DNA from: Limisphaerales bacterium | Lineage (GTDB): Bacteria; Verrucomicrobiota; Verrucomicrobiia; Limisphaerales; Palsa-1400 | NCBI GenBank assembly: GCA_052139695.1 | Contig: JBKQWF010000307.1 | Span: 72,297 to 136,296, forward strand | Reading direction: 5' to 3' | Length of the DNA stretch: 64,000 nucleotides | The notes under the pieces: generated by a model | What the model was told of the DNA's origin: nothing | The model's database searches: none | The model's input: the letters and a program-made list of their open reading frames with translations, nothing else | Part shown: positions 37,778-54,222 of the stretch, one piece after another | Layout: every line of letters begins with the position of its first letter | Numbering within the stretch: the first letter of the stretch is position 1 | Position numbers and translations under genes: made by a program

Positions 37778-38386
37778 TCATTTATCCGGCGCCGGGACAG
37801 GCGGCTGCCAAAGTTCGGCGTTTTTGGACGGGACCAGGTCATGTTCCCCGAAATGTGGCACCGGGACCTCGCTGGAATCCAAGTAAGGCTGGCCACCGCC
37901 TACCGTCAGACGCTGGCCCGCGATTTTCTTCTGCAACAACATCAGCCCTTCCAACAAGGCTTCCGGGCGCGGCGGACATCCGGCGATATGCACATCCACC
38001 GGGATGTAGCGATCAATGCCCTTGAGAACGTTGTAACCTTGCTTAAATGGCCCGCCGGAAATGGCGCATGCTCCCATGGCGATGACATACTTGGGCGACG
38101 GCATTTGGTTGTAAAGTCGAACTACCTGGGGCGCCATCTTCTTGGTCACGGTGCCCGCCACGATCATCAGGTCGGCTTGCCGCGGTGAGGGACGAAAGAC
38201 CTCCGCGCCAAAGCGGGCGATGTCAAATCGGGACATGGAGGCGGCGATCATTTCAATCGCGCAGCAGGCCAATCCAAATTGCAAGGGCCAGAGGGAGTTC
38301 TTGCGTCCCCAATTGTAAAGCTCCGCGAGGCTCGTCAGGACGATTCCTTGCTTGCTCAATTCATCGCGTAACTCGTTCGATTCCAC
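37778..38386 (-). CDS. nuoB: NADH-quinone oxidoreductase subunit B (N2 cluster)
   Basis: GLACCAIEM ... [11 protein letters not shown] ... IAGCPPRPE cysteine pattern. Confidence 0.95.
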
Positions 38387-38403
38387 AAATATAAGCGGTT
38401 AAA

Positions 38404-38775
38404 TTATTTCCAGGCCAAAATGCCTTTGGCGAACGCCCAGACCAGTCCTTCCGCCAGCAGCAGAATGAAAACGAGCATGGCTGCGCAAGCGCCCGCGGGC
38501 AGACCTTTGAAAGCAACGGCAAAGGGCAAAAGAAAGATCGTCTCGACATCGAAAATGAGGAAGACAATTCCATAGAGGTAATACTCCGATTTAAACTGGA
38601 CCCAGCCGGTGGGAGCCGATTCCAAACCGCACTCATAGGTGGCATTTTTGACGGAACCCGATTTATGCGGGGAAAAGACACGGGCCCAGACCCAGGCAAT
38701 GGCCAGAGGCGAGAGGGCAAAGACAAGGGCGGCCACGGCGAAAAGAGCCAAAAACTGATAAGGACCAAGATTCAT
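38404..38775 (-). CDS. nuoA: NADH-quinone oxidoreductase subunit A
   Basis: I place the start at the internal ATG at 38775 (MNLGPYQFLALFAVAALVF). ND3 motif YECGLES...FLIFDVE. Confidence 0.9.
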   Translation of the reverse strand: MNLGPYQFLALFAVAALVFALSPLAIAWVWARVFSPHKSGSVKNATYECGLESAPTGWVQFKSEYYLYGIVFLIFDVETIFLLPFAVAFKGLPAGACAAMLVFILLLAEGLVWAFAKGILAWK

Positions 38776-38795
38776 TGTTTTGCGGTGTTGGGACT

Positions 38796-39116
38796 TTACG
38801 CGGCGCTCGCCGCCGGCAGTGGTTCCACTATGATCATCTGGGCCAGTTCGGCGCTGACCGCCAAACGCGCGTTGCAAACCAGGCAGATCAGGTTCGATTG
38901 CCGGATGAGCAGTTTAATCACTTGCTCCTCGACAAAGCCGATTTCCCGCAGATGCTGGGTGAGTTGCGGCGGGGTGGAAAGCCGCTTGATCCGCACAGCC
39001 ATGCCGGCTTTGACCCGGCTGAGCGGGCAGGTGAAAGGGCGCGCGCCGCCGCGTTCGCGAGATCGGCCCGCCGCGAGCAGCCCGGTCGGTTCTTCAAAGC
39101 ATTCCGTCATTTTCAT
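38796..39116 (-). CDS. FeoA-domain small protein
   Basis: PLSRVKAGMAVRIKRLSTPPQLTQHLREIGFVEEQVIKLL...ARLAVSAELAQMIIV fits the FeoA/DtxR-C SH3-like domain pattern. It ends 20 nt upstream of nuoA on the same strand. The start, taken at MKMTE, is uncertain. Confidence 0.65.
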   Translation of the reverse strand: MKMTECFEEPTGLLAAGRSRERGGARPFTCPLSRVKAGMAVRIKRLSTPPQLTQHLREIGFVEEQVIKLLIRQSNLICLVCNARLAVSAELAQMIIVEPLPAASAA

Positions 39117-39659
39117 CTGCCTAATAGATAATCGGACAGAGGCGTCTCGACTTCCCATTGGTTGCTATTTGCACCCCATTTTTTGGTATGTTGGTCAATT
39201 CTCTCCTCTGGCGGGAAGAGGCGGCGCCAAGCCCCCACCCTGCATCGCCAGGGAAAAGAGGTCGGTGAAAGGCGATCCCGGCTAACCACAACTGGCCGAG
39301 GGCCTGGCAATTAATGGCGCATCCCTGCCGGAAGGGGCGGCGCACCCCCGGGAAGCGGCCTTTTGGGTCCGCCGCGGAGCCTCGTAGAATGTGCTCCAAC
39401 CTTTTTCTGGCCTCTTCTTTCCCAAGGGAAGGCCAGAGATTCGCAATCCGTGTGTAGTTCATCATGGTCTCATCACCGATACTTATCCGCGATGAACGAT
39501 CGGACAGGAAGGCGAATACGAGGGAAAAACGGGCAAATGGCGCGCTCCAAGTCCGGCGTTTCGCAAAAGATGAGGAACAAATGGCAATATCGGTGGAGCC
39601 ATTTCCGCCGTCACGCCTAATAATACGGACATCAATAACCAGTGACATCACTTGGAAAT

Positions 39660-40802
39660 ATGATCTTGACTAATTATAGCGGCGAAGCATCCGGCCCCGC
39701 CTCCGCACCCAGCTCCACCCTCTTCGTGGCAGGCATCAGTTTCAGGACGGCGCCGGTCGCGTTGCGCGAGCAACTGGCGGTCATCCCCTCGCGTGTGATC
39801 GAAGCCGCCAAACGTCTCAAAGAGCTGGGCGGCCTCTCCGAGGTGGCCCTGGTTTCCACCTGCAATCGGGTGGAGCTTTACGGAGTGTCGCCCCACCCCG
39901 GCGGGTTCGCCGAGTTGCTCGCCTCCCTGGCGCGCGAGAAAATCGATCTCTCGTCCTACGTCTATGTCCATACCAATGAAGACGCCGCCCGGCATCTTTT
40001 CGCGGTGGCCGGCGGCCTGGATTCCATGGTGCTTGGGGAAACAGAGATTACCGGCCAGATAAAGACAGCTTATGAAGCGGCGCGGGGCGCGGAGTTGACG
40101 GGCCGCATCCTCAATGGGGTCTTCCAGCGCGCCTTCCAGGTGGTCAAAGCCATCCGCACCCGGACGCAGGTCGGACGCGGCGCCACTTCGGTGGGGAGCG
40201 TCGCCGTGCAATTAGCCGAGAAGATTCTCGGGGACGATTTTCAGAGCAAAACGATCATGATCATCGGCGCCGGCAAGATGGGAGAGGCCTGCATCCGGCA
40301 CCTCGCCAAGAAAGGGGTCCGTTCCGTTATTGTCGCCAACCGCTCCCTCGAACATGCCGCGGAATTGGCCCGGGAAGTCGGCGGCCAGGCCGTCAATTAT
40401 ATGGACGATGGCCTGGCGGCCATGCAAGAAGCGGACATTGTCGTCAGTTCGACCGGCTGTCCCGAAACCATTTTGGACCGGGAAGATGTGGAGGCGGTCA
40501 TGCGGCAGCGGCCCAATCGCCCGTTGTTCCTCATCGACATTGCCGTGCCGCGCGACATCGCCGTGGATGTGGAACGGCTGGAGAACGTCTTTCTCTACAA
40601 CATTGACCATTTGCAGCAACTGATGCGGGAAAACGTCCGCCTGCGGGAGCAGGAGCTTTCGCGCTGCCGCGGGATCATTGAAGAACACACCGCGGCCTTG
40701 ATGGCCAAACTCAACCAGGCGCCGAGAAAACCGGTCGTGGTCGAGCTGCCGCCGCGAATGGATTGGGCCTTCTCCCACTCCGCGGGCAATTATGCGAAGT
40801 GA
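39660..40802 (+). CDS. hemA: Glutamyl-tRNA reductase
   Basis: GISFRTAPVALRE, STCNRVELY (catalytic Cys) and IIGAGKMGE (NADPH-binding) motifs. ATG at 39660. The tracked ORF begins at a GTG at 39642. Confidence 0.9.
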   Translation: MILTNYSGEASGPASAPSSTLFVAGISFRTAPVALREQLAVIPSRVIEAAKRLKELGGLSEVALVSTCNRVELYGVSPHPGGFAELLASLAREKIDLSSYVYVHTNEDAARHLFAVAGGLDSMVLGETEITGQIKTAYEAARGAELTGRILNGVFQRAFQVVKAIRTRTQVGRGATSVGSVAVQLAEKILGDDFQSKTIMIIGAGKMGEACIRHLAKKGVRSVIVANRSLEHAAELAREVGGQAVNYMDDGLAAMQEADIVVSSTGCPETILDREDVEAVMRQRPNRPLFLIDIAVPRDIAVDVERLENVFLYNIDHLQQLMRENVRLREQELSRCRGIIEEHTAALMAKLNQAPRKPVVVELPPRMDWAFSHSAGNYAK

Positions 40803-40969
40803 ATTTCACATTTTGAGGAGTTTTAGAATTTTGACAGGCGGGAACCAACAACTTTCCGAGTTGGGACTGGCTGTCAGGAGGTTACGCGGCAGCGCGCTAA
40901 CTGTAAGTCACCCACAACGCTGATGATGGCAAGCCTTAGGAAGTCCCCGACACAATATACAAATGTAAT

Positions 40970-43270
40970 ATGAAAATAAAACAACGAACCAGAAAGGCGC
41001 AATCCTGTCTTTTTGCGATTGCGCTGATAACCACGGTCGCCTTCGCGGCGAAAGCGGCCCCTCCCTACCTCAACGCCCGCATTACCCCGCGGCCGGTCAC
41101 ACCCAACGACGTCACCGTCTATAATCTCGCGGCCAGCACCGAGTATTCGGGCGGCTTGAGCACCATCGGGATTGGCACACCAGCCTATTTGGAGCTGGAT
41201 GTCACTAATACCGTTTCTCTTCAATCCATCACGAACATTACCTGGTCCTTGACCGGGCCTTTTGGGTCGGCTGCCGCCTATACGAACAGCCCGCTGCCGA
41301 ACACCATGCCTGTTTTCCTGCCGTCCGATCGTTTGGTCTATCAGGTTGCCAGCCGCGTTTTGCTCCGCCCGGATGTGGCGGGACAATACACTCTGACCGC
41401 GGCGATCGCCACGACCAACGGCGTTACCAATGTCAGCGCCAACCTGATTGCGGGGACCTATTATGGCGTCGCCGGGTGCGAACTTTGCCACAGCGGCGGC
41501 GTTCAAGCCCCTGACACGTACCATCCCTGGCTCACGACTGGCCACGCCAGCATCTTTACCGGCGGCATCGATGGCTTGGATGGCAGCCATTATAGCGTCT
41601 CCTGCATTAAGTGCCACACGGTCGGATATGATACGAACGCGGTCACATTCCCGGATAACGGCTTCTACTCCGTGGCGCAAAAAGATGGCTGGACGTTTCC
41701 GTCCGTCTTAGTCAGTTCAAATTACGCCAATATGCCGGCCAATTTGCAGAATTTAGCCAATGTGCAATGCGAGAATTGCCACGGTCCCGGCAGCGAGCAC
41801 ATGGCCTTGCTCGGCGACACCACGGCCTCCAATTGGCCGAGTCTTGATGTTCCGGCCACGGTGGGAACGTGCGTGCAATGCCATGACGCTCCTCCAAACC
41901 ATGCCGATGGCACTCAATGGTACGCCTCCTCCCATGCCGTCACGACGACCATTCCTTCCGGGTCGGGCCGGCAATATTGCGTGCAATGCCACACCGAGAG
42001 CGGATTCATCTCTATTGTCTCGAACAATGCGGCGGGCAATGGAATTACTTACTCCTCGAACACCGTCTATGCCGCGATTGGCTGCCAAACTTGCCATGAG
42101 CCGCATGGCCTGACGGCTCCGACCAACGATAGTCACTTAATCCGAGCTATGGTCTCCGCGACCTTCGGGGACGGCACGGTCATCACCAATGGCGGCGAGG
42201 GCAATCTGTGCATGACTTGCCATCACAGCCGTGATGGCTCGGCCGTGACCAACGTCGCCAATTATCCCTTGGGCCGCAACACCTGGCCCGGCGGATCGAG
42301 CTTTGGCCCGCATGATGGCGTGCAAGGAGACATGATCGAGGGCATCAACGCCATTACCTATGGACAAGTGATTCCCAGTTCCGCCCACCGCTATTCGGTC
42401 ACAAATTCTTGCGTTGGTTGCCATATGCAAACCATCGCCTCCACCGACCCCGGCTTCCTCCTCTCCGGCGGACACACCTTCGAAATGAGCTATAAAGTTG
42501 TTTCCAACGGCGTGACGAACAAGGTGGACCAGGTGGCGGTCTGCAATCAATGCCACGGCGGAATCACTACCTTCAACTTCCCGGTGGAAGATTACGCCAA
42601 CACCGGCGCCGTCCAGGGTGTTCAAACCGAAGTTCAGATCCTGCTGAACCAATTGTCCACCTTGTTGCCGAACTCCAGCGGCGTTATCGATGGCTCGGTC
42701 AAGACCAGCCTTTCGGTCAAGACCAACTGGACGACGGCGCAACTGCAAGCCGCCTATGATTGGCAATTTGTCAACAATGACGGCAGCCTCGGCGTCCACA
42801 ATGCCCCCTATGCGACTGGCCTGCTCAAGGCCTCAATCGCTAACCTGACGGGCGTTTCCGTGCCAGGCGGTTTGCCGGATGCGTGGGAGATAGCGAACTT
42901 CGGTTCAGTCACCAACGTCCTCGGCGCCCCCGATGCGGACCCGGCTGGCGATGGCATCCCGAACTGGCTGAAGTATTCCCTGGGGCTTAGTCCCTTCACC
43001 GCGGGTTTGGCTGTTCCTGATGGAGTTGTCTATGCCAATGGCACGGAACTGGGCGGAAGCACCAACACCATCCAGATCTACACGGCGGCGGACGTTACCT
43101 TCGACACCACCGCGGGCACCACCTACCAAATCCAGGAAGTCAGCGCTCTGAGCGATGGATGGCAGAATGTCGGAAACCCGGTTGTGGCGACTAACAATGC
43201 CTCCGTGAGCTACTTGACTCCGACAGTGGGCAATGTCCAGCAGTTCTTCCGCGTCGTCCATACGCCATAA
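40970..43270 (+). CDS. Secreted multiheme c-type cytochrome, 9 CXXCH, with a C-terminal beta-sandwich-like domain
   Basis: Signal peptide. Heme motifs are CELCH, CIKCH, CENCH, CVQCH x2, CQTCH, CMTCH, CVGCH and CNQCH. The C-terminal roughly 150 aa are non-heme (DPAGDGIPNWLKY ... YQIQEVS...FFRVVHTP). Confidence 0.9.
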   Translation: MKIKQRTRKAQSCLFAIALITTVAFAAKAAPPYLNARITPRPVTPNDVTVYNLAASTEYSGGLSTIGIGTPAYLELDVTNTVSLQSITNITWSLTGPFGSAAAYTNSPLPNTMPVFLPSDRLVYQVASRVLLRPDVAGQYTLTAAIATTNGVTNVSANLIAGTYYGVAGCELCHSGGVQAPDTYHPWLTTGHASIFTGGIDGLDGSHYSVSCIKCHTVGYDTNAVTFPDNGFYSVAQKDGWTFPSVLVSSNYANMPANLQNLANVQCENCHGPGSEHMALLGDTTASNWPSLDVPATVGTCVQCHDAPPNHADGTQWYASSHAVTTTIPSGSGRQYCVQCHTESGFISIVSNNAAGNGITYSSNTVYAAIGCQTCHEPHGLTAPTNDSHLIRAMVSATFGDGTVITNGGEGNLCMTCHHSRDGSAVTNVANYPLGRNTWPGGSSFGPHDGVQGDMIEGINAITYGQVIPSSAHRYSVTNSCVGCHMQTIASTDPGFLLSGGHTFEMSYKVVSNGVTNKVDQVAVCNQCHGGITTFNFPVEDYANTGAVQGVQTEVQILLNQLSTLLPNSSGVIDGSVKTSLSVKTNWTTAQLQAAYDWQFVNNDGSLGVHNAPYATGLLKASIANLTGVSVPGGLPDAWEIANFGSVTNVLGAPDADPAGDGIPNWLKYSLGLSPFTAGLAVPDGVVYANGTELGGSTNTIQIYTAADVTFDTTAGTTYQIQEVSALSDGWQNVGNPVVATNNASVSYLTPTVGNVQQFFRVVHTP

Positions 43271-43300
43271 GCGTTGGGCCGCCGCGGAGACGGTTATTCA

Positions 43301-43342
43301 TTGGCGGCTGGCAGGCGCGCGCGAAGCGCGGCCAGCCGCCAA
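43301..43342 (+). terminator. Strong hairpin after the first cytochrome gene
   Basis: TTGGCGGCTGGC ... GCCAGCCGCCAA is a perfect 12-bp inverted repeat with an internal GC-rich sub-stem. It begins 30 nt after the stop codon. Confidence 0.6.
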
Positions 43343-43416
43343 ATCAGGGCAACAAGGGAAAATTTGAACGGTTGCTAGACAGCGTTTCGCGCATTTGGTA
43401 ATAAAATGAAAGGAAG

Positions 43417-44325
43417 ATGATGAGCACGTCGCCAACAAAAAACGTGGAGGTTCCAGAGAAGCGGCGTGGGCGCGTTGTTGTCCGAATCCTCATTCCGTCG
43501 CTGCTCTTCTTCCTCGCAGGCGCGGCTTTGAGCGCGATCTTGATTTCCCGTTTCTCACGCGCCCCAGACCCGGCGAACGATGCGGGGGCCGTCCAGCTCT
43601 CGGAGGCGACCAAGACAATTTTGCAACGACTGGATTCGCCGATAGAGATCCGCTTTTACTCTATTTTAGATACAGCGACTGTGTCAGATTCTGTCCAGGC
43701 TTATGCCGGGCGGGTGGATCAATTGCTCTCTCAGTATGAACAACTGGGCAGCAACCGGGTGAGATTGATACGCTATAATTCTTTGGTCAGTTCCAACGTG
43801 GCCGCCGCGCAAGCGGATGGCATCAGAGCTTTTAATATCGAGAAAGGCGACAGTTCCTTTTTGGGAATAGCGGTCGTCTGCGATGGGCAAAGAGAATCTC
43901 TCTCGTCTCTCGCTCCGGAATGGGAGCAGGCATTGGAACCCGACCTCAGCCGGGCAATCGCGCGAGCCGCCGAAGCGCGGCAGGCGGCGCAACCGGTGGC
44001 TCGGGCCGATGCCGCCACCCTGGCTGAAGTCAAACGTTTAGTTCCTAACGCGGACGCCGTTTCCCTGGCCGACGGCACGGGGCAATTGCGCGGCACGGCG
44101 ATCGCCCAATTCGCCCAAACAGCCCAGGAATTGCAAACGCAAGTGAAGGAAGCGCAGGAACGTTTCCTTAAGGCACAAAGCAGCCAGTCCGAGGAGGGGC
44201 AGAAGGCGGCCCTGGAGCAATTGCGGAAAATCCAAGCTGAAGCAACGGACAGATTACGACAAATCGCCATCAACTCACACGCGCAGGTAGCGGCGCTGCA
44301 ACAAATGAAGAAGGCAGCGCCTTGA
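43417..44325 (+). CDS. Membrane-anchored hypothetical protein with GldG-N-like region and Gln/Ala-rich coiled-coil tail
   Basis: 302 aa with a TM segment (ILIPSLLFFLAGAALSAILI). LDSPIEIRFYS...YAGRVDQLLSQYEQL resembles the N-terminus of ABC-auxiliary GldG-type proteins. It overlaps the next ORF by 4 nt. Confidence 0.45.
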   Translation: MMSTSPTKNVEVPEKRRGRVVVRILIPSLLFFLAGAALSAILISRFSRAPDPANDAGAVQLSEATKTILQRLDSPIEIRFYSILDTATVSDSVQAYAGRVDQLLSQYEQLGSNRVRLIRYNSLVSSNVAAAQADGIRAFNIEKGDSSFLGIAVVCDGQRESLSSLAPEWEQALEPDLSRAIARAAEARQAAQPVARADAATLAEVKRLVPNADAVSLADGTGQLRGTAIAQFAQTAQELQTQVKEAQERFLKAQSSQSEEGQKAALEQLRKIQAEATDRLRQIAINSHAQVAALQQMKKAAP

Positions 44326-44375
44326 GGCCGGAATGCAAATCTCACGATCCTATTCATCGACAATTGCTCCAACGC

Positions 44376-45956
44376 ATGAATAGGGCAATCCGCCATCTCC
44401 TTCGCCGGCCTTCTTTTCTTTTACTGGGAGTGGTGCTGGCTTCCGCGGCTCCAGCGCAAGAGGTTCAACATCTGAGCACTAATTTGCCGGGAGGGATGCC
44501 TGGGCTGCCCATCATTACGGGAATCGCTTCTGTTACCAATGGCGTGAAGGTAACATGGGATGGGCCTTCGGGTTACTATCAACTATTTGAATCTCCAACT
44601 ACCAACAAGCCGGTGTGGCGGGCATTGACCAGGCAAACGGACTTGCTCCGCAATGCCATTGTGCCAAGCCGTTATAGCAATGCTTTTTTCCGAGTAGCAG
44701 GTCCGCCGCCTCAATATGCCGAGGCTGAGACGTGCCTGGCATGTCATGCGCCGATTTTAAATACCGAGATTCATACCCTGCACGCCGTTGCGTTCAGCAA
44801 CGCGTCGTTCGCGGCTTGCGGCGGCCAGACCAATAGCTCTTGCCTGGCCTGCCATACGGTGGGATTCGATTTGCCGACAGGATTTGTCAGCGCGGCCCGG
44901 ACACCGCCATTGGCCAATGTCCAATGTGAGAATTGTCATGGTCCGGCGGGGCCGCACGCCGCCAATCCCGCCGACCCGCTGGTCAGACCGCGTGTCGAGG
45001 TGGCTGCCACCGTTTGCGGCGGCTGTCATTCTGATCCTCGACATCCAACCTACGAAGAATGGACCAACAGCGCTCACGCGCAGGTGGTCGAAGATATGAA
45101 TCCCGCCAGCCGAATCGATGCCTGCGGACGGTGTCATTCCGGGACAGTGCGTTTAAGCTTGCTGGAAAATATGGCGCTGCCCGCGGGCGACGCGGATATC
45201 GGCATTGTCTGCGCCACCTGCCACGACCCGCATCAAACCAATGCCTATCCCGCGCAACTGCGCAACCCGGTGGCATCGACCAATGATTATTTCATGCCGG
45301 CGAACGGCACGTTTGCCAGCTCCTACAATCCGGAGATCAATATTTGCGCCCAATGCCATAATCACGCGGGCGCCTCGTGGACCAATAACGCCTGCGAACC
45401 GCACCATTCACTGCAATACAACATGCTGCTCGGCTCTGTCGGCGAGTTGAGTTCCGGCCTGGCGCCTTACCAACCGGCCACGCACGCGCTGGCGATCACC
45501 AACCAGTGTGTCGGGTGCCACATGCAGACTTCCTCCTTTGTCAGTGATTCACAACCGGCGGTGACAGGCCATAGTTTTAAGGTTGAGACATATACCCTCT
45601 GCCTCAACTGCCATTCTCTGCCTGAGCAGACCGTTGCTTTCACCACCAGCGACGTGTCAAATCAAGTGCAGCAGGTCAAATCCCTTTTGGACGACTGGGC
45701 GACTAACAAGGCGCCGGCGGCCTTGGCCAAGTACGGCGTTCTCGCTTGGGAATATACCACGCCTGGAGGACTTTCTTCGGGTGGACCGGGACCGAACGCC
45801 GCGGAGCAAGCGCTGATTCCCGAGAACATTCGCAAGGCGCGGTTCAATCTCTACCTGGTGCGGAATGACGGCAGCTTCGGCGTTCACAACCCACATTTTA
45901 CCATCAACCTTCTGCAAACGGCGGCAGGCTGGGTTGAGGGGGAACTAGACCCATAA
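44376..45956 (+). CDS. Secreted multiheme c-type cytochrome, 9 CXXCH, with an N-terminal beta-sandwich-like domain
   Basis: Likely start MNRAIRHLLRRPSFLLLGVVLASAAPAQE; the tracked ORF starts at 44322. Heme motifs are CLACH x2, CENCH, CGGCH, CGRCH, CATCH, CAQCH, CVGCH and CLNCH. Confidence 0.85.
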   Translation: MNRAIRHLLRRPSFLLLGVVLASAAPAQEVQHLSTNLPGGMPGLPIITGIASVTNGVKVTWDGPSGYYQLFESPTTNKPVWRALTRQTDLLRNAIVPSRYSNAFFRVAGPPPQYAEAETCLACHAPILNTEIHTLHAVAFSNASFAACGGQTNSSCLACHTVGFDLPTGFVSAARTPPLANVQCENCHGPAGPHAANPADPLVRPRVEVAATVCGGCHSDPRHPTYEEWTNSAHAQVVEDMNPASRIDACGRCHSGTVRLSLLENMALPAGDADIGIVCATCHDPHQTNAYPAQLRNPVASTNDYFMPANGTFASSYNPEINICAQCHNHAGASWTNNACEPHHSLQYNMLLGSVGELSSGLAPYQPATHALAITNQCVGCHMQTSSFVSDSQPAVTGHSFKVETYTLCLNCHSLPEQTVAFTTSDVSNQVQQVKSLLDDWATNKAPAALAKYGVLAWEYTTPGGLSSGGPGPNAAEQALIPENIRKARFNLYLVRNDGSFGVHNPHFTINLLQTAAGWVEGELDP

Positions 45957-45958
45957 TT

Positions 45959-46822
45959 ATGAAGTGGATCAAAACAATGGCAGCCGGTGGTTGCGAGGAC
46001 AAAGTCGCGATCGGCACGCGGGTCCTGGCTTTCACCATCCTGCTGCTTCCGTTTCTGCTTTTCATTTCCTGCGGGACGCCGACCCGTCCGGTCGTCGTGC
46101 TGCCCAATGTGCCGGGCGCCAAGTATATCGGCTCCAAGGAATGCGAACAGTGTCATGACGAACTTTGCCGGGATTTTGTCACGGCCGACCACGCGCGTCT
46201 CATCGCGGAAGGAACCAACGCCATCAACGCGGGCTGTGAATCCTGTCACGGCCCTTGCAGTCTGCACTCGGAATCCGGCGGAGACACCAAACCTCCCTTT
46301 AGCTTCACATCCGGCCGTCCGCAATCCTCCAGTTTTGAGCGGGTGGGGCTGGAGCCTAACCGCTCCATCGAGACGGCTTGCTTTCAATGCCATCCGGAAG
46401 TGCGTGGCAAACTGAACCTGCCCAGTCATCATCCGGTGGCGGAGGGAAGGATGAGCTGCGTGGATTGTCATTCTCCGCACAGAGGTTCCATCCACGTCGG
46501 CGGGGGCACGTCCATGCTCACCCAAAATCAGGCCTGCATCCGCTGCCATCCTGAGGAGCGCGGCCCTTATGTGTTTGAACACGACGCTTTGCGCGAAGGC
46601 TGCACGGTTTGTCATGACGCGCATGGCTCGATCAATCCCAAGCTGCTCACGGTGCGCGATTCCAATCTCTGTTTGAAGTGCCACTTCCAACAATCCAGCG
46701 GCGGCCAGCTCTTCATTGGCGGGCAAGACCATACGCTGCGGGTGCAGCAGGGCTCTTGTTGGACCGCGGGCTGTCATGAAGCCGTTCATGGCTCGCGGGT
46801 CAGCCCGACTCTTCAATTCTGA
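45959..46822 (+). CDS. Periplasmic multiheme cytochrome lipoprotein (7 CXXCH plus 1 CX4CH)
   Basis: Signal peptide with a lipobox-like LFISC. Heme motifs are CEQCH, CESCH, CFQCH, CVDCH, CIRCH, CTVCH and CLKCH, with a terminal CWTAGCHEAVHGS. The heme density (about 1 per 30 aa) is like the periplasmic components of porin-cytochrome conduits. Confidence 0.85.
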   Translation: MKWIKTMAAGGCEDKVAIGTRVLAFTILLLPFLLFISCGTPTRPVVVLPNVPGAKYIGSKECEQCHDELCRDFVTADHARLIAEGTNAINAGCESCHGPCSLHSESGGDTKPPFSFTSGRPQSSSFERVGLEPNRSIETACFQCHPEVRGKLNLPSHHPVAEGRMSCVDCHSPHRGSIHVGGGTSMLTQNQACIRCHPEERGPYVFEHDALREGCTVCHDAHGSINPKLLTVRDSNLCLKCHFQQSSGGQLFIGGQDHTLRVQQGSCWTAGCHEAVHGSRVSPTLQF

Positions 46823-46828
46823 GCCGCT

Positions 46829-48916
46829 ATGATTCCGTTCAAAAACATCTTTCTGGCGCTGGCGGGGACGGTCGTAACGGCGGCGGCGGCGGAATCGACC
46901 AATACTCCCGCGCCTCCCGCGTTGACGCCGGAGCAATTATACGAAGGAGGAACCAACTCCTTCACCAATTGGATCGAGCTGGCCACCGGCGGTTTCTTTA
47001 TCAGCGGCGACAAAGCGCAGTTTCAGCAATTGCATCAAGTCTCAGGCTACCCGTACGGCGGCCTTCAGGATTTTCATTACCAGGAAAACCTGGACAAGAC
47101 GACGACGCTGACCGCGAACGGCCATGCGCTTTTCAATGAGCACGACTACAAATTGCGCCTGGGAATCCAGAGGGAAAAAGTCGGCTACCTCAATCTTTCT
47201 TACGATCAATCGCGGGAATGGGAAAACGGGGCCGGCGGCTTTTTCCCGCCAACGGGCGCTTATTACTCGCTTCCGGGCAACGCCCTGGGACTGGATCGCG
47301 CGAATTTTGGGATCGAGGCTGGTTTAACCCTGGATAATAAACCGAAGATTGTCTTTAAGTACAATCACAAGACACGCGAGGGAGAAGAAGCTTCCACCAG
47401 TTGGGGACTGGCCCATCCCGATAGCGGCTCCTTGACGCGGGGAATCAGTCCGTCCTTCTACGGCATTAACGAGCGGATCGACAGTTTTCAACTGGACATC
47501 AGCCATCACATTGACAAAACGGACGTGGGCTTGGGCTTTACCTTTGAGACCGGCAAACTCAACGACGCTCTCAATATCACGCAGTTTCCCACTGAACCGC
47601 TCCAGCAAAAGACCACCGACCGCGAAGGCACGTCTTACGATCAATTCAGCGTTCACACTTACACGGAGACATGGATTACTAATAACCTCATGCTCTCCTC
47701 CGGCTTTTCCTATACGCATCTGGACAATAATTTTTCCGGCAGCCGGATTTACGGCTCTGACTTTGACGTGGGTTATGTTCCGAATGCGCAAAACGGCTTT
47801 GGTTATTATGGCCTGGCGGGAGATTCGCGCCTGAACGATTACGTGATGGACTTGAACCTCCTCTACCGGCCCTCGCCTCACTTGACAATTATCCCCTCGA
47901 TCCGCGTCCAGGACGAGGACTGGAACGCCTACTCCAGCGGAATGGAGACGTTGGAGAATTATGCGGCGGTGCCTTTCACCTCCGATAGTGACCGGGGGGT
48001 GTTGGATGTGATTGAGCGGCTGGATCTGCGCTACAATGGGCTGACGAACTGGGTCTTCACCGGCCGTGGCGACTGGACGGAAGGTCATGGGAATCTGAAC
48101 GAGAATGGCGGGGTGCTGCCCATCGAAGGCATTGGCTTGCAGCCGGTGCTGGAAGAGATGGAGGATAACCGCTTCTTTCAGAAATACTCTCTCGGCGCCA
48201 AGTGGTATCCAGACCGGCGTGTCGCGATCGACCTTGGGGGATACTATAAGTTCGACCATTACGGCTACGATTTCAATTACGATAGCACGCCGAACAATAG
48301 CGCCAGCCGTTATCCCGGTTACCTTGTCATGCAGGACTTCCAAACGTATGATGGCAACTTTCGCTTGACGATCCGGCCCCGGCAAAATGTCACCTTGATC
48401 TCGCGCTACGAATACCAATGGTCCACCATTGACACCACGCCCGATCCTGTTTCCGGCCTCCCCGACGTGGAATCTTCGACCATGAATACCCACGTCATCG
48501 CCCAAGACGTGAGTTGGGTGCCTTTCTCTCGCTGGTCCTTGCAAGCCGGGCTGGACTATGTTCTAAGCGAAACCAAGACGCCCGCATCGCAAGTCACACA
48601 GGCCATCCTTAATTCCCAGAATAACTACTGGACAGTCAATGTTTCTTCCGACGTTGTCCTGGACAATAAAACCGATCTGCGGTTGAGTTATCTTTATTAC
48701 GCGGCGGATAATTACGTTAATAATGACCTCTATGGCGTGCCCTATGGCGCGAGCGATGGCGAACACAACATTACGGCCACTCTCACCCGCCGCATTCGCC
48801 CCAATCTTCGCTGGATGCTGCGATACGGGTTCTTTCTCTACAACGATCTGACGTACGGCGGCAACCAGGATTTCCGCGTGCATATGATCTACACTTCGCT
48901 GCAATACCGGTTTTGA
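46829..48916 (+). CDS. Outer-membrane beta-barrel protein, MtrB/PioB/OmbB-like by context
   Basis: 695 aa with a signal peptide. Alternating hydrophobic and Tyr/Gly/Asn/Asp-rich strands run throughout, and the C-terminus is YTSLQYRF (terminal Phe, an OMP signature). It lies 6 nt after the 8-heme gene. Confidence 0.75.
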   Translation: MIPFKNIFLALAGTVVTAAAAESTNTPAPPALTPEQLYEGGTNSFTNWIELATGGFFISGDKAQFQQLHQVSGYPYGGLQDFHYQENLDKTTTLTANGHALFNEHDYKLRLGIQREKVGYLNLSYDQSREWENGAGGFFPPTGAYYSLPGNALGLDRANFGIEAGLTLDNKPKIVFKYNHKTREGEEASTSWGLAHPDSGSLTRGISPSFYGINERIDSFQLDISHHIDKTDVGLGFTFETGKLNDALNITQFPTEPLQQKTTDREGTSYDQFSVHTYTETWITNNLMLSSGFSYTHLDNNFSGSRIYGSDFDVGYVPNAQNGFGYYGLAGDSRLNDYVMDLNLLYRPSPHLTIIPSIRVQDEDWNAYSSGMETLENYAAVPFTSDSDRGVLDVIERLDLRYNGLTNWVFTGRGDWTEGHGNLNENGGVLPIEGIGLQPVLEEMEDNRFFQKYSLGAKWYPDRRVAIDLGGYYKFDHYGYDFNYDSTPNNSASRYPGYLVMQDFQTYDGNFRLTIRPRQNVTLISRYEYQWSTIDTTPDPVSGLPDVESSTMNTHVIAQDVSWVPFSRWSLQAGLDYVLSETKTPASQVTQAILNSQNNYWTVNVSSDVVLDNKTDLRLSYLYYAADNYVNNDLYGVPYGASDGEHNITATLTRRIRPNLRWMLRYGFFLYNDLTYGGNQDFRVHMIYTSLQYRF

Positions 48917-48985: not shown

Positions 48986-50317
48986 CTATAAAGGTTTGCT
49001 GAATAAAGATGAGCCAGGTGAACGGTAAGCGTAACGGCTGTGCAGCAGCGCGCCGCGCGTGAGCAAGAAGGAGAGCAGAACACACATTGCCACCAAGGTG
49101 GTGCTGAGAGCTGTCGGGATTCCGGGAAAATAGCGATTCGACAATATGGGCAATCCCGCGCCATAAGCGATAACGAGGAGGTACAATGAAATATACGCCG
49201 ACCTCCCGGACCCAAATTGCGTCAGGATAAAAACGCCCAACGCCGCGGGCGCGAGAACAAAGGTGTAGCTTTTCAAAGTCGCCGCCGCGACAACTCTTCC
49301 CCACAACAGACCCGCCGACAAGAACCCCAGCACTCCGACTGCCATGATGGGCAAGAGGGCAATAGCGATAAGCACCCCGGCCAGCGTCGTCGCGGATATG
49401 GGCATTGTTCTGCAAAGGCGCAATTGCTGCATCAGCGGCGGTGTGAGCGTAAAGACGATTATAAAGAGCGCGATAAAACTGGACAATGACGCCAACATCC
49501 CCCCTTCAAAAGCAGGCGTCCGTGCAGACTTGAGCCCCGGCAGGGAACAGGCCGCCATCATGAGAACGACCGCTGCCAGCAAATACCAAAGCCCTCGCCT
49601 CACTGTTTCGCGCAGGAGAAATCGAATTCCACCATAGCCGGTCGGAGGCTGGCCCACGCCGCCCGGAAGGAGGCGTTGCATGTCCGGCAACCGGAAACCA
49701 GCCCGGCCTCGCACAGATTTCTCCGCGCGAATCCAGCTTGCCGCCGTCACGGTGCAGCCAATCGTCAAAAAGAAGAGGAAAGGAACGGATCGCTCAAACA
49801 GGACCTGCGTGGTCCACATGCTGCCAAAAAGCATGACCATCGCCAGAAAGCCAGGCCATGCGCTGCCGACGCGTTCCCTCCAGTTTCCAAGAAACTCATC
49901 CGTCATGCCGTAATTCAACGTGAAGGAGGTCCCCAGCCAAAGAAAACAAAACAAGGAGGCTTCCGCTAAAGCCACCAAAGGCGCAGCCTTCCCCACATGA
50001 TATGCCGACCAGAGAGAAGCGCCGAAACATAAGAGCCCGGCGAAGGCGGCCGCCGGGATGGCGACCGTTGCAAACCACCAGGCGCGTCCGATTTGTCTGG
50101 CCGTCAAGGGCAGTGCCAGCATGGTTCGCGGGAGCCCTTGTCGCAGATCAAAGCCCAGTAACATCGCCCCCATCCACATCGAAAGGAGTAACACCCAAAA
50201 CGCGAACGGCTGGCCCGCCGTAGCAGGGATCAACCAGCCAAGACCCACCGTCAGCAGAGCATTCAAAGCCAGCACCCGCCACCAGCGGCGAAAATGATCC
50301 AGAATCAGCCGTTTCAT
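48986..50317 (-). CDS. Multi-pass membrane protein, permease partner of the ABC ATPase
   Basis: I place the start at the internal ATG at 50317 (MKRLILDHFRRWWR), which overlaps the ATPase stop (ATGA). About 10 hydrophobic segments. Confidence 0.65.
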   Translation of the reverse strand: MKRLILDHFRRWWRVLALNALLTVGLGWLIPATAGQPFAFWVLLLSMWMGAMLLGFDLRQGLPRTMLALPLTARQIGRAWWFATVAIPAAAFAGLLCFGASLWSAYHVGKAAPLVALAEASLFCFLWLGTSFTLNYGMTDEFLGNWRERVGSAWPGFLAMVMLFGSMWTTQVLFERSVPFLFFLTIGCTVTAASWIRAEKSVRGRAGFRLPDMQRLLPGGVGQPPTGYGGIRFLLRETVRRGLWYLLAAVVLMMAACSLPGLKSARTPAFEGGMLASLSSFIALFIIVFTLTPPLMQQLRLCRTMPISATTLAGVLIAIALLPIMAVGVLGFLSAGLLWGRVVAAATLKSYTFVLAPAALGVFILTQFGSGRSAYISLYLLVIAYGAGLPILSNRYFPGIPTALSTTLVAMCVLLSFLLTRGALLHSRYAYRSPGSSLFSKPL

Positions 50318-51195
50318 TGCGCCTCCTTTTCCTTGAACAACGCCACAAATAGGTCTTCGAGCGTCAATCGTGTGAGCGACACCTGTTCCGCCCCCTGCGC
50401 CTTCAGCCATGCCTCGCCGGCGCGAGTCTGGTCCACCAGCGCGCGCCAGCGGTTTTCCTCCCAGCCCAAAACGGTGAATCCGTTGCCATTTTGGAACGTC
50501 GCGCCATTGCGGGTGAAGAATTCCGCCAAGCGGTAACGGTCAAGGATTTCGTCCGTTCGGCCCTCCAGGAGTAACCGGCCGTCGCGCAAAATGCCGATGT
50601 GATCAGCGAACCGTTCGATGTCGCTCAAGCTGTGGGAGGAGATAAGAACGGTGCGCTCCCCCGTTGCGATGGCCTTGAGCAATTCTCCGAAAATCTGCTG
50701 CCTCGAGACCGCATCCAGGCCGGTCAGGGGTTCGTCAAGAATGAAAATCTCCGGCTGCCGCGCCAGCGCCAACAGAAGGCTGAGCTTGGTTTTTGCTCCG
50801 AAAGAAAGCGTCACCACGTGGTCGCCGCTCCGCAGATGAAAGGCGTTCATCAGGTGGGCGCAATAATCATCGTCCCACTTGGGATAAAAGCCGCGAACAA
50901 ACCGGATGGCTTTGCCCACTTTGCCCCAGACCTGGTAATTCAAGTCGGGACCCACGTAAGCCGCGCGGCGCTTAAAGGCGACTTCGTCCGCGCGGTGGTC
51001 CAAACCGAGGACCCGAATCGTGCCCGCGTCGTTGCAGCCCATGCCGAAAATCATGTCCAGGGCGGTGGTCTTGCCGGAGCCGTTGGGGCCAATCAGGCCG
51101 TAAATCGCGCCCCGCGGAACGGTCAAATCGAGCGGCCCGAGTTGGAAGGCTGGGTATTTTTTGACTAAGCCGCGGATTTCGAGGGCGTTGTTCAT
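50314..51195 (-). CDS. ABC transporter ATP-binding protein
   Basis: Walker A GPNGSGKTT, signature motif LSFGAKTKL, Walker B ILDEPLTGLD and an H-loop SSH. Confidence 0.9.
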   Translation of the reverse strand: MNNALEIRGLVKKYPAFQLGPLDLTVPRGAIYGLIGPNGSGKTTALDMIFGMGCNDAGTIRVLGLDHRADEVAFKRRAAYVGPDLNYQVWGKVGKAIRFVRGFYPKWDDDYCAHLMNAFHLRSGDHVVTLSFGAKTKLSLLLALARQPEIFILDEPLTGLDAVSRQQIFGELLKAIATGERTVLISSHSLSDIERFADHIGILRDGRLLLEGRTDEILDRYRLAEFFTRNGATFQNGNGFTVLGWEENRWRALVDQTRAGEAWLKAQGAEQVSLTRLTLEDLFVALFKEKEAQ

Positions 51196-51620
51196 AGGGA
51201 CTCCGGTTCTTTGGAAGGTTGATCGGTTTCTCTGAGGGTCTTATGGGCCAAATTCAGAATTTCCTCTTGATTTAGTCCGGCTTCGGCGGCTTCGCGGAAG
51301 GCTTCCCGCAGCAACCCTGCCGCCGCCGCCAGTTTAGCTTCACGGCTGCGGGCCTGGCCTTGCTCCGCCACGAAGGTGCCGAGGCCGTGCCGGCGGTAAA
51401 TGATGCCTTCACTTTCGAGCTGTTCGTAGGCGCGTTTGACGGTAATGACGCTGACCAGCAGATCTTCCGCCAGTTGGCGGAAGGAAGGGAGGGCATCGCC
51501 GGGTTTGAGCCGGTCGGCGCTGATTTCCCGTTTGAGTCGATTGACGATCTGCTGGTAAAGGGTGGCGCCTTCAGCCGGGGAAACCGGCCCAATCCAGCAG
51601 GATTTGCGATCTTGTCTCAC
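51192..51620 (-). CDS. GntR-family transcriptional regulator (YtrA subfamily)
   Basis: LYQQIVNRLKREISADRLKPGDALPSFRQLAEDLLVSVITVKRAYEQLESEGIIYRRHGLGTFV, with a short C-terminal helical tail. It overlaps the ATPase start by 4 nt. The tracked start is a GTG. Confidence 0.85.
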   Translation of the reverse strand: MRQDRKSCWIGPVSPAEGATLYQQIVNRLKREISADRLKPGDALPSFRQLAEDLLVSVITVKRAYEQLESEGIIYRRHGLGTFVAEQGQARSREAKLAAAAGLLREAFREAAEAGLNQEEILNLAHKTLRETDQPSKEPESL

Positions 51621-51639: not shown

Positions 51640-51941
51640 CAGCAGCACAGTTGTCAACCGCTTTTCTTTGCGTCGGACGGCCTGGCGGGGCACCAGCGGA
51701 TGTTCAGACCGGGACAAAAAATGACTAGAATGAGGCGCCTGATTTTGAGCCTGTTCGAGAAGAGGCAATTCTTATCTAACCAAAAATCAATTCCTCAGAA
51801 CAAAAAAAGCAAAGCAAATCACAATTACGGTGAGGCAAAGGAATGGCGTTCCCGGCGATGTTATCAGCGGACAAAGTGGCCATGCCGCGGCTCGCACTGG
51901 GGAGTCGAGCGCCGGATGGCGAAGAGAAACGGATAACAACT

Positions 51942-52271
51942 ATGAAAAGATCATACTTACTGCTCGCTGTTCTGGCATTAGCCGCCGGGACATCGGCCGT
52001 GCTGGCGGCTGATTCCGGCGAACTCTGGCAGAAAAACTGCGCCAAATGTCACGGCAATGACGGCGCGGGCGACACCAAAATGGGCAAGAAACTGGAAATC
52101 AAGGACCTGACCGACGCCAAATACCAGGCTTCCTTTACCGATGAACAGGCCTTCAAAGCCATCAAGGAAGGAATCAAGGAGGGCGACAAGACGAAAATGA
52201 AAGCGGGGGAAGGCCTTAGTGACGAGGACATCAAGGCGCTCGTGGCCAAGACTCGCTCTTTCAAGAAATAG
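51942..52271 (+). CDS. Monoheme class I cytochrome c (periplasmic)
   Basis: I place the start at the internal ATG at 51942 (MKRSYLLLAVLALAAGTSAVLA). One heme site, CAKCHGNDGAGDTKMGKK. Confidence 0.8.
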   Translation: MKRSYLLLAVLALAAGTSAVLAADSGELWQKNCAKCHGNDGAGDTKMGKKLEIKDLTDAKYQASFTDEQAFKAIKEGIKEGDKTKMKAGEGLSDEDIKALVAKTRSFKK

Positions 52272-52406
52272 CCGGTGAACAGGGCCGATGCGAAGCAAAG
52301 CGGAGTTCTAACCTGGCCAGCTTCGCGTTGGTTCCACCCCCCAGATTTTTCGGGCGGCTGGAAGGCCGTCCGGGAGAAAAAAGTCACAATCAACCAAGGA
52401 GATTAC

Positions 52407-52733
52407 ATGAAAACAGCACTGGTCCTCGCGCTGGCGGCAGCCGCATTGACGGCCACGACCGCGCGGAGCGACGATGTTAAAGCGACCTACGACAAAGAAT
52501 GCACCAAGTGTCACGGCGCGGACGGCAAGGGCGAGACCAAAATGGGCAAAAAGCTCGGCGCCAAGGATTATACCGATGCCAAAGTGCAGGACGCGTTAAA
52601 AGACGACGCGGCCTTCAAATCGATTAAGGAAGGCCTCAAGAAGGACGACAAAACCCTGATGAAGCCGGCGGAAGGGCTGTCCGACGATCAGATCAAGGGC
52701 TTAGTCGCCTACATGCGTTCCTTCAAGAAATAA
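52407..52733 (+). CDS. Monoheme class I cytochrome c, tandem paralog
   Basis: I place the start at the internal ATG at 52407, preceded by AAGGAG (MKTALVLALAAAALTA). Heme site CTKCHGADGKGETKMGKK. It is colinear with the upstream paralog down to the ...RSFKK end. Confidence 0.85.
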   Translation: MKTALVLALAAAALTATTARSDDVKATYDKECTKCHGADGKGETKMGKKLGAKDYTDAKVQDALKDDAAFKSIKEGLKKDDKTLMKPAEGLSDDQIKGLVAYMRSFKK

Positions 52734-52740: not shown

Positions 52741-54222
52741 ATGAGTGCTCCCGCGCCATCCTCGGCTCCGCGTTCAACCGTTTGGAGAAATTGGACCAGC
52801 CTGGCTGGCGCGGTCGTCATGGTCGCCAGCGCCTTCGCATTTATCTTATTGTTCTTTCTCGATGCGGTGGCGCATTCCAATAATCCGTATCTCGGCATTC
52901 TGACGTTTCTTGTCGCGCCTGCCTTCTTCTTCCTGGGGCTTTTGCTCTTTCTCATCGGTGTCTGGCAAAAGCACCGGGACCAGGCCAAGGCCACTGGCGG
53001 GGCCATGCCGCTGCAAATCCGGGTTGATTTCTCGCGCCCGCGCGACCGGCGCATGCTCGCCATCTTTGTCCCGGCGAGCGTTTGCTTCTTTCTGGTGACG
53101 GCCATGGGCAGCTATCACACCTATCACTTTACGGAATCGGTCACGTTTTGCGGCGAGGCGTGCCATACCGTCATGCAGCCTGAACTGACCACTTACCGGC
53201 ACGGCCCGCACGCGCGGGTGGCCTGCGTGGAATGTCACATTGGCAGCGGGGCGGAATGGTATGTGCGCTCCAAATTATCCGGCACTTATCAAGTCTATGC
53301 CACCCTGGCCAAGAAGTATCCGCGGCCGATTCCTACGCCTGTCAAAAACCTGCGTCCGGCGCAGGAAACGTGCGAGGAATGCCACTGGCCGCAAAAATTC
53401 GTCGGCAACCTCGACCGCACTTATTCCTATTTCCTGCCCGACGCCACCAATTCGCTCTATTCCGTCCGTCTTTTGCTGAGAGTGGGCGGAGGCGATCCCA
53501 CGCATGGCCCCGAAGGCGGCATCCATTGGCACATGAACGTGGCCAACAAAATCGAATATGTGGCGGCCGATGAGGCCCGGCAGAATATCCCGTGGGTGAG
53601 GATGACCGATCGCCAGGGAGTGGTCACAGAGTTCCGCACCGCCAGTTTTACCAACGACCTCAGCAAAATGAGCGTGCGCCGGATGGATTGCATGGATTGC
53701 CACAACCGCCCCGCCCATGTCTTCCGCTCGCCGGAGAGCGCCGTGAACATGGCCATGTCTCTGGGCCAAATCGACCGCTCCTTGCCTTACGTCAAAACCA
53801 ACGCGGTCGGCGTTTTATGCGGCAAGTACAAGGATGACGACGAAGCTTTTCAGCAAATAGCCGAGACCTTCCAGAAACGTTATCCGACCAATCTCACCGC
53901 CGGTTTGGCCATCAAGACCCTCCAACAGATTTATAAGGACAATTTCTTTCCCGCGATGAAGTCCGACTGGCGCGCGTATCCGGACAATATCGGCCACAAG
54001 GATTGGCCGGGTTGTTTTCGCTGTCATGATGGCAAGCACAAGACGGCGGATGGGACCCGATCCATCCGATTCAATGATTGCAACGTCTGCCATGTCATTC
54101 TGGCGCAGGGCAGCGGCGAGCAGATGAATCAATTGAGCCCACTTGGGCAGAAGTTCGCCCACCCGTTGGAAGAATATGACCCAGCCTACCAATGCACCGA
54201 CTGCCATAATGGCGGACTCTGA
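52741..54222 (+). CDS. NapC/NirT-type inner-membrane multiheme cytochrome (6 CXXCH plus 1 CX3CH), ImcH-like
   Basis: Three N-terminal TM helices, then a NapC/NirT-like region (CGEACHTVMQPELTTYRHGPHARVACVECH ... CEECH), plus CMDCH, CFRCH, CNVCH and CTDCH. Confidence 0.8.
   Translation: MSAPAPSSAPRSTVWRNWTSLAGAVVMVASAFAFILLFFLDAVAHSNNPYLGILTFLVAPAFFFLGLLLFLIGVWQKHRDQAKATGGAMPLQIRVDFSRPRDRRMLAIFVPASVCFFLVTAMGSYHTYHFTESVTFCGEACHTVMQPELTTYRHGPHARVACVECHIGSGAEWYVRSKLSGTYQVYATLAKKYPRPIPTPVKNLRPAQETCEECHWPQKFVGNLDRTYSYFLPDATNSLYSVRLLLRVGGGDPTHGPEGGIHWHMNVANKIEYVAADEARQNIPWVRMTDRQGVVTEFRTASFTNDLSKMSVRRMDCMDCHNRPAHVFRSPESAVNMAMSLGQIDRSLPYVKTNAVGVLCGKYKDDDEAFQQIAETFQKRYPTNLTAGLAIKTLQQIYKDNFFPAMKSDWRAYPDNIGHKDWPGCFRCHDGKHKTADGTRSIRFNDCNVCHVILAQGSGEQMNQLSPLGQKFAHPLEEYDPAYQCTDCHNGGL

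Follow-up and report, generated by a model that had tools for sequence, protein, structure and literature searches.

In genomes of Verrucomicrobia, a ‘novel’ porin of at least 20 strands has been described beside a cytochrome with eight conserved heme sites, sometimes accompanied by an extracellular multiheme c-type cytochrome (MHC) in the same cluster, and electron transfer to humics was proposed as its role by He et al. 2017 (mSphere, PMC5615132). An Opitutus ‘MtrA’ with seven canonical sites and a ‘TxxCH’ was reported by Lipson et al. 2013 (PMC3669403). On the physiological side, Limisphaera sp. 4302-co grows by respiring ferric citrate and ferrihydrite, reportedly the first case of dissimilatory Fe(III) reduction from its phylum; the strain is an organoheterotroph with no lithoautotrophic growth, and its describers credit porin-associated MHCs in general and call the porins unrelated to MtrB (PMC13608581). 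Here, we analysed a 64,000-nucleotide stretch of the genome of a Limisphaerales bacterium (contig JBKQWF010000307.1; the whole stretch is called the window in the following), in which hemA is followed by genes for two nonaheme cytochromes (cytA and cytB), an octaheme lipoprotein (cytC) and a 695-aa outer-membrane β-barrel. We consider it likely that this locus encodes a divergent Mtr-type conduit, which moves electrons across the outer membrane and delivers them outward to Fe(III) or humics.

The window shares the phylum and the humic-rich type of habitat with the loci of He et al. and agrees with their description, as it belongs to Limisphaerales and encodes a barrel of 26 strands, a partner with eight conserved sites and two extra MHCs; the comparison was made at the level of description (PMC5615132). 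Because the descriptions by He et al. and by Lipson et al. fit, we regard the window as a member of an already predicted, uncharacterised kind. A sequence-only reading of this DNA had correctly pointed to such verrucomicrobial predictions, and its statement that none has been characterised holds at the level of genes; yet a Limisphaera isolate with the core trio reduces Fe(III) (PMC13608581). Locus L047 of the genome of strain 4302-co, on which the link to this isolate rests, encodes a 9-heme cytB and a CX4CH-containing octaheme lipoprotein, whose gene is followed after a 6-nt gap by that for a barrel with LQYRF at its C-terminus. What we add is the homology of both core parts to MtrAB, contrary to both papers (PMC13608581 and PMC5615132), a definition of the differences (hemes 3-4 lost, lipidation, CX4CH, a barrel without CXXC), and the OcwA-type partners together with a conserved gene content that includes ImcH-like, CbcL-like, monoheme c and hemA genes. 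He et al. call the system non-homologous to Mtr, whereas both core parts emerge here as remote Mtr homologues; hemA, DUF7088 and the linkage to ImcH/CbcL, which we find here, are without mention in what is available of their porin-MHC account.

Six same-strand open reading frames (ORFs) had been proposed by the sequence-only reading, and all of them are present on the plus strand (Table 1). Its counts of 9, 9 and 8 hemes with a terminal CX4CH agree with the motifs (9 CXXCH, 9 CXXCH, and 7 CXXCH plus CWTAGCH), the start codon of the barrel gene indeed lies 6 nt past the cytC stop with LQYRF at the end of the protein, and what it had called a small membrane protein has one N-terminal transmembrane segment in addition to DUF7088. 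Relatives of the locus were collected in a scan with one genome per species, which gave 79 loci; the counts of gene neighbourhoods reported below come from 77 non-duplicate loci with enough flanking sequence.

Judged by its sequence, cytC is a true homologue of MtrA that has been pruned and lipidated. In phmmer, it matches the MtrA subunit in the structure of MtrCAB with E=1.7e-26 (PDB 6R2Q chain A, the molecule name of which is mislabelled in an entry entitled ‘Structure of the Mtr complex’), and it scores 151.4 bits against TIGR03508, the MtrA/DmsE family, under the curated cutoff of 192.2, and 169 bits against NF041028, under the cutoff of 325. We aligned cytC with the MtrA of S. baltica, rebuilt from the 6r2q match, and with that of Photobacterium, for which a bona fide mtrCAB locus was located (L083). 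The eight heme motifs of cytC fall collinearly and column for column on MtrA hemes 1, 2 and 5-10, while the counterparts of hemes 3-4 are deleted, so that the ten CXXCH sites of the MtrA type are represented by eight. The last of them (CWTAGCH, residue 267) is a CX4CH at the position where MtrA heme 10 has CXXCH, and it is matched exactly by the ‘TxxCH’ site in Opitutus (PMC3669403). A VHGS...LR[FY] motif at the C-terminus is common to cytC and MtrA. Instead of the type-I signal peptide of the soluble periplasmic MtrA form, cytC has a conserved lipobox (LFISC), and by this motif it is judged to be a lipoprotein. All 72/72 full-length orthologues keep the 7 CXXCH + 1 CX4CH pattern, a lipobox of the form [LVA][IVLS][SA]C and the C-terminal motif. 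By analogy with MtrA, cytC is the presumed heme wire within the barrel.

The 695-aa barrel protein is, on the strength of profile comparison, a remote MtrB/PioB homologue despite failing the family hidden Markov model. It contains zero cysteines and is identical in sequence to an NCBI ‘hypothetical protein’ of a Limisphaerales metagenome-assembled genome (MAG); its family comprises 1169 clusters at 50% identity (E<=1e-3). PF11854 gave weak matches in 4/59 of a set of diverse relatives, with 0.0018 as the best value. A family profile of these 59 sequences was compared by hhalign with 35 PF11854 (MtrB/PioB) proteins, and the two families align over their full length (608 columns) with 99.7% probability and E=2e-25. 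The 35-sequence MtrB/PioB profile was needed here, as the single Photobacterium MtrB, which itself scores PF11854 at 9e-153, was matched with a probability of 36% only. The AlphaFold2 (AF2) model predicts a 26-strand MtrB-type fold (pLDDT 69.7, pTM 0.63, most strand blocks 80-95), in line with the large barrel of at least 20 strands expected from the sequence-only reading. Its best match in Foldseek is MtrB (6r2q_B; E=1.9e-15, TM scores 0.68/0.72). The next matches are 22-strand TonB-dependent receptors with TM scores of about 0.4; identity as such a receptor was rejected on this score and on the absence of a plug domain from the domains found. One could still read the protein as an ordinary porin or transporter beside periplasmic cytochromes, with no electron transfer across the outer membrane, and the lack of Pfam and NCBIfam matches would suit that view, as would the failure of HMMER profiles of the family to find a solved relative among PDB sequences. 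Given the profile alignment with MtrB/PioB, the specific structural match to MtrB with its 26 model strands, the missing plug domain and the MtrA homologue that adjoins the barrel almost throughout the loci, in the window across 6 nt, we hold this explanation to be highly improbable. The sequence-only reading of a porin-cytochrome module is thus carried by homology of both parts, not by gene order alone.

The pairing of octaheme and barrel genes is not due to chance: in 71/72 loci the octaheme gene is the immediate upstream neighbour of the barrel gene, and none of the orthologues has lost the heme pattern or the lipobox. Related clusters keep the porin, including those that were retrieved with the 9-heme cytB as query. 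The loci are mostly labelled Verrucomicrobiota, Limisphaerales or Pedosphaera MAGs, many of them from peat, bog, palsa and lakes, and these habitats fit the humics hypothesis of He et al. (PMC5615132). In two loci of a distant clade, L067 (8028-19355) and L075 (7956-19242), a single co-directional array holds the genes for the 8-heme protein, the barrel, a monoheme c, a 7-heme ImcH-like protein, an 11-heme CbcL-like protein and two 9-heme proteins, without hemA or DUF7088; the window has the same gene set in another order. In L027, the barrel is directly followed by monoheme c, ImcH-like and CbcL-like genes, and a monoheme c homologue comes directly after the barrel in many loci.

Separately, we observed barrels with 38-60% identity in eleven loci labelled as other taxa (L011, L012, L019, L035, L040, L044, L050, L061, L066, L069 and L072), among them Acidoferrum, Binatia, Limnocylindrales, Aquilonibacter, Bifidobacteriaceae, Dongiaceae, Haliangiales and Omnitrophota. 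These labels probably stand for mis-binned or mislabelled verrucomicrobial contigs, not for wide transfer. On two long-read MAG contigs, the barrel gene (L084, 9508-11755) and the octaheme gene (L085, 8591-9160) are split or truncated, which probably reflects an assembly frameshift error rather than decay.

The two nonaheme cytochromes are, by sequence comparison, paralogues of the OcwA type and not of the MtrC or OmcB type. They share 28% identity over 456 residues (BLASTP, E=6e-29), and their family profiles match with a probability of 100% (hhalign, E=1.8e-50). With the cytB family profile, OcwA (6i5b) is matched at 1.1e-25 in an alignment that is collinear along the entire protein (OcwA residues 13-497), and weaker matches are OmhA (6qvm; 6e-17) and cytochrome c554 (1.7e-11). 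The profile of cytA orthologues matches OcwA (6i5b) at 1.1e-14. The OcwA-like 9-heme core of cytA lies at about residues 160-625, between extra N- and C-terminal domains. For cytB, the ORF as listed has 544 aa (44322-45956) with a possible TTG start at 44322, but translation probably begins at the ATG at 44376; the resulting 526-aa protein is identical to NCBI protein P0340, annotated as ‘multiheme c-type cytochrome [Limisphaerales bacterium]’. Its AF2 model is poor overall (pLDDT 53.7) and the fold search, with weak matches to Fn3 and OcwA, is therefore weakly informative; the C-terminal helical region is confident, and an N-terminal Fn3-like β-sandwich is modelled at residues 46-108 (pLDDT 64-84). 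The extra β-sandwich domains claimed by the sequence-only reading were thus seen in part, the check covering cytB.

Export signals were found on the cytochromes, those of cytA and cytB being AxA-type signal peptides with no lipobox. For OcwA, a role as terminal reductase at the cell surface has been characterised (PMC6703420). Possibly, the octaheme protein and the barrel form the conduit alone, while cytA and cytB stay periplasmic, either carrying or storing electrons between the inner membrane and the conduit or, in the manner of OcwA/NrfA, reducing soluble oxyanions of N or S; this would be a compatible variant of an Mtr-type conduit rather than an exclusive alternative to it. The ordinary Sec signals without lipobox, the lack of linked secretion genes and the kinship of the OcwA family to NrfA, octaheme reductases and c554 all speak for such a periplasmic role, and so do a distant clade without an adjacent nonaheme gene and the presence of cytA in 30/56 loci only. 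Yet cytB adjoins cytC in 54/66 loci and is found elsewhere in the locus in 3 more, OcwA and OmhA, the closest relatives with a solved structure, are located on the cell surface, and the CXXCK catalytic motif is present in neither cytA nor cytB; the Fn3-like and accessory domains, typical of surface proteins, add a weak argument in the same direction. Taken together, we regard the periplasmic placement as rather unlikely, and a surface location of cytA and cytB is what we infer for the conduit.

Downstream of the barrel, the window encodes candidates for the inner-membrane end of the pathway. Two small monoheme cytochromes c, which are tandem paralogues, are candidate periplasmic shuttles. The adjacent ImcH-like protein shows the architecture described for ImcH (PMC6295460), with transmembrane segments at residues 18-46, 49-77 and 103-125, a CX3CH (CGEACH) at 137 by the third of them, 6 CXXCH and a NapC/NirT segment (PF03264, 5.5e-9), and is a putative quinol oxidase. 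The CbcL-like protein has an N-terminal multiheme c domain fused to C-terminal transmembrane segments that form a HydC/FdnI-type cytochrome b domain (PF01292, 4.4e-8; TIGR01583, 1.5e-12), as is typical of the CbcL/MtrH/MtoC family, for which a range of 3-23 hemes is given (PMC6295460). The minus-strand block between the barrel and these genes looks like an insertion that splits the module, because the monoheme c gene directly follows the barrel in L027, L067 and L075; its 474-aa membrane protein has no family match. The unit probably extends to about 56.4 kb and includes the monoheme c, ImcH-like and CbcL-like genes. In L084 (1-1853) and L085 (12089-15400), a module of an MHC, a 4Fe-4S protein and an NrfD-type membrane protein stands beside the cluster and may be an alternative quinol-oxidising partner; no ImcH/CbcL genes were called within the 7-kb flanks of these two loci.

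With these partners the same conduit might also run inward and oxidise extracellular Fe(II) or reduced humics like MtoAB/PioAB, the electrons passing via monoheme c to an oxidase or through the CbcL/MtoC-like protein to the quinone pool. A barrel followed by a small monoheme c resembles the order mtoA-mtoB-mtoD, and class-I monoheme cytochromes stand right after the barrel in many loci. A distant clade has only octaheme, barrel and inner-membrane partners with no adjacent nonaheme, as do MtoAB/PioAB, the habitats are oxic-anoxic interfaces, MtrA/MtrB homologues work both ways, and homologues of CbcL/MtrH/MtoC occur in Fe(II) oxidisers; ImcH homologues, however, have to date been found in Fe(III) reducers only (PMC6295460). 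ImcH and CbcL together are the pattern of Geobacter as a reducer, the OcwA-type partners are terminal reductases (PMC6703420), and the only cultured carrier is an Fe(III)-reducing organoheterotroph without lithoautotrophic growth (PMC13608581). Furthermore, pyruvate:ferredoxin oxidoreductase (PFOR) and the fermentative heterotrophy seen in these genomes suggest that electron sinks are needed. We consequently favour outward flow and consider the inward direction improbable.

The heme supply of the locus might be linked to hemA. The encoded HemA is a genuine glutamyl-tRNA reductase (355 bits compared to the TIGR01035 cutoff of 210), as the sequence-only reading had it, but it is short and spans positions 2-345 of the 416-position model; Pfam gives GlutR_N and Shikimate_DH only, with no match for the GlutR dimerisation domain. 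Its orthologues in L001 and L002 have 358-361 aa. A hemA gene stands upstream of the cluster in 21/53 loci (about 40%), always together with cytA. The DUF7088 protein has its transmembrane segment at residues 18-47 and a coiled-coil-like C-terminus, and its gene separates cytA from cytB in 41/56 loci; in 31 of these it is inverted, and in the other 10 it has the orientation found in the window, on the strand of the cytochrome genes. Despite this inversion, the DUF7088 proteins are orthologous (47% identity; window 43417-44325, L001 6138-7001, L002 5966-6919). In L085, we further noted genes for PFOR and FeoA just upstream of the hemA-led cluster.

For the outward conduit that we prefer, we propose the following route. 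The ImcH-like and CbcL-like cytochromes of the inner membrane (52741-56419) would accept electrons from menaquinol, and the small monoheme cytochromes c, possibly along with the nonaheme proteins, would carry them through the periplasm. At the outer membrane, the 26-strand MtrB-like barrel would sheathe the octaheme MtrA homologue, with the lipid-anchored protein threaded in the barrel and its C-terminal hemes facing outward. The octaheme wire would pass electrons on to humic quinones or to Fe(III) in minerals or chelates, either directly in the last step or through the OcwA-like cytB and cytA as surface reductases. HemA may contribute to the heme supply of the seven cytochromes, which together have 46 c-heme sites. 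The sequences show the homologies, the conserved heme motifs and lipobox and the synteny; the threading of cytC into the barrel, the surface position of cytA and cytB, the outward direction and the identity of the acceptors are what we infer.

Several points weigh against this conduit. The barrel has no match in Pfam (including PF11854, MtrB_PioB) or NCBIfam, even at E<=10, it lacks the N-terminal CXXC of the MtrB/PioB consensus, being free of Cys altogether, and the quality of its model is moderate. Insertion of cytC in the barrel rests on analogy; the loss of MtrA hemes 3-4 could break the wire unless hemes 2 and 5 repack. As non-lipoproteins without a linked secretion system, cytA and cytB may be periplasmic. 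The inner-membrane module is parted from the barrel by three unrelated minus-strand genes in the window, and an ImcH-like gene lies <=9 kb downstream of the barrel in 15/50 loci only. Class-I monoheme c and CbcL/MtoC-type proteins also occur with MtoAB in Fe(II) oxidisers and would suit either direction of flow. In our view, the homology of both core parts, their conserved adjacency and the Fe(III)-reducing carrier still make an outward Mtr-type conduit the likely function of the locus.

Table 1 Genes of the likely conduit locus and of its downstream module in the window
Feature	Coordinates	Strand	Remarks
hemA (glutamyl-tRNA reductase)	39642..40802	+	TIGR01035 E=3.7e-106; first in the co-directional series
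cytA, 766-aa secreted nonaheme cytochrome	40970..43270	+	9 CXXCH; Sec-type signal without lipobox
DUF7088 protein, 302 aa	43417..44325	+	PF23357 E=2.9e-10; one N-terminal transmembrane segment
cytB, 526-aa secreted nonaheme cytochrome	44376..45956	+	9 CXXCH; OcwA-type core
cytC, 287-aa octaheme lipoprotein, MtrA homologue	45959..46822	+	7 CXXCH + CWTAGCH
695-aa outer-membrane β-barrel, remote MtrB/PioB homologue	46829..48916	+	Signal peptide; 26 predicted strands
GntR regulator, ABC ATPase, 474-aa polytopic membrane protein	48986..51620	-	Between barrel and monoheme c
Small monoheme class-I cytochrome c	51843..52271	+	1 CXXCH; PF13442/PF00034; likely start ATG 51942
Second small monoheme cytochrome c	52275..52733	+	1 CXXCH; PF00034/PF13442; likely start ATG 52407
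ImcH-like inner-membrane heptaheme cytochrome	52741..54222	+	3 transmembrane segments; CX3CH + 6 CXXCH
CbcL/MtoC-like protein	54143..56419	+	11 CXXCH + cytochrome b domain; likely start near 54209

The G+C content across the region is even (0.55-0.59), and recent horizontal transfer of the cluster was rejected on account of this uniformity. A promoter scan returned 14 promoter-like sites compared to 7.2 +/- 2.8 in shuffled sequences; this little enrichment, together with terminator-like sites at the expected number in the same scan, leaves the operon structure undefined. Scans for Rfam families and tRNAs gave nothing within or near the cluster. At its downstream end, a Fic/DOC-domain ORF (56308-57798, plus strand), as listed, shares about 110 nt with the CbcL-like gene at the 3' end of the latter, and its true start probably lies further downstream. 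Just upstream of hemA, the minus strand of the window carries a PFOR gene and a complete-looking nuo (complex I) operon (22965-38877). The AT skew of the nuo region is strong (0.17-0.27), an effect that probably stems from the hydrophobic membrane subunits encoded by the minus strand. Further upstream on the same strand (12855-21402), two very large sensor histidine kinases of 1459 and 1387 aa stand side by side, one of which carries Reg_prop/Y_Y_Y and PAS domains.

In peat, bog and lake sediments, Limisphaerales and Pedosphaerales occur in abundance, and they are usually regarded as fermentative polysaccharide degraders. If the conduit works, respiration of humics or iron would be possible for both groups and carbon would therefore be diverted from fermentation and methanogenesis. 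The kinship with MtrAB sets the ‘novel’ verrucomicrobial porin-cytochrome system in a known evolutionary frame, and since this relative of MtrAB has been pruned and lipidated, it becomes clear why it escapes tools that rely on Pfam MtrB_PioB or TIGR03508. While specialists would not be surprised by the system as such, it is widespread and ecologically relevant, and an Fe(III)-reducing Limisphaera isolate with the cluster provides concrete targets for genetics.

Compared to the known systems, the likeness to MtrABC and OmcB systems proposed by the sequence-only reading holds for the core, which is a relative of MtrAB, but not for the nonahemes, which are OcwA-like and neither MtrC- nor OmcB-like. 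With the Shewanella MtrCAB/MtrAB and the PioAB, MtoAB and DmsEF systems, the window shares an MtrA-type gene immediately upstream of a gene for a 26-strand MtrB-type barrel, and with Shewanella MtrAB the sequence and profile homology of both parts, the similarity in fold and the VHGS...LR[FY] motif. It differs in that Shewanella MtrA has ten hemes with CXXCH as the last site, whereas cytC is an eight-heme lipoprotein ending on CX4CH, and in that MtrB has an N-terminal CXXC, whereas the barrel of the window has none and stays under the Pfam and TIGRFAM thresholds. In Shewanella, the outer partners are the decaheme lipoproteins MtrC/OmcA and the inner-membrane partner is CymA; in the window, OcwA-type nonahemes without lipobox and ImcH- and CbcL-like proteins take these places.

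In the literature, OmbB of Geobacter is described as having about 20 strands and OmcB as a 12-heme lipoprotein. The Pcc of Geobacter sulfurreducens shares with the window the combination of an octaheme cytochrome on the periplasmic side, a porin and an outer cytochrome, as well as inner-membrane cytochromes of the ImcH and CbcL types. OmaB/OmbB/OmcB are compared with the window by architecture here, and no NCBIfam match named for OmaB/OmbB turned up in a general NCBIfam scan. In contrast to the Pcc, the window encodes an MtrB-like barrel of 26 predicted strands, it is the octaheme cytochrome that is the lipoprotein, and the partners are 9-heme proteins without lipobox instead of a 12-heme outer-surface lipoprotein. 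OcwA of Thermincola potens (6I5B) and OmhA of Carboxydothermus ferrireducens (6QVM) have a collinear nonaheme core and a C-terminal helical region in common with cytB and cytA. These two are, however, cell-wall or S-layer proteins of Gram-positive bacteria, while cytA and cytB belong to a diderm, stand beside an Mtr-type conduit and carry extra Fn3-like and other domains.

OcwA-type terminal reductases are otherwise known from Gram-positive bacteria. We therefore put forward, tentatively and at somewhat less than even chances, that the locus is a distinct, mosaic type of conduit in a diderm, in which a lipid-anchored octaheme wire derived from MtrAB is joined by terminal reductases of the OcwA type and by ImcH/CbcL quinol oxidases of the Geobacter type, and which serves abundant Verrucomicrobiota of peatlands and lakes as the main respiratory outlet to humics and Fe(III). 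If this holds true, the control that such a conduit, assembled from parts of these three known systems, exerts on carbon flow and methane production in peatlands and lakes has been overlooked.

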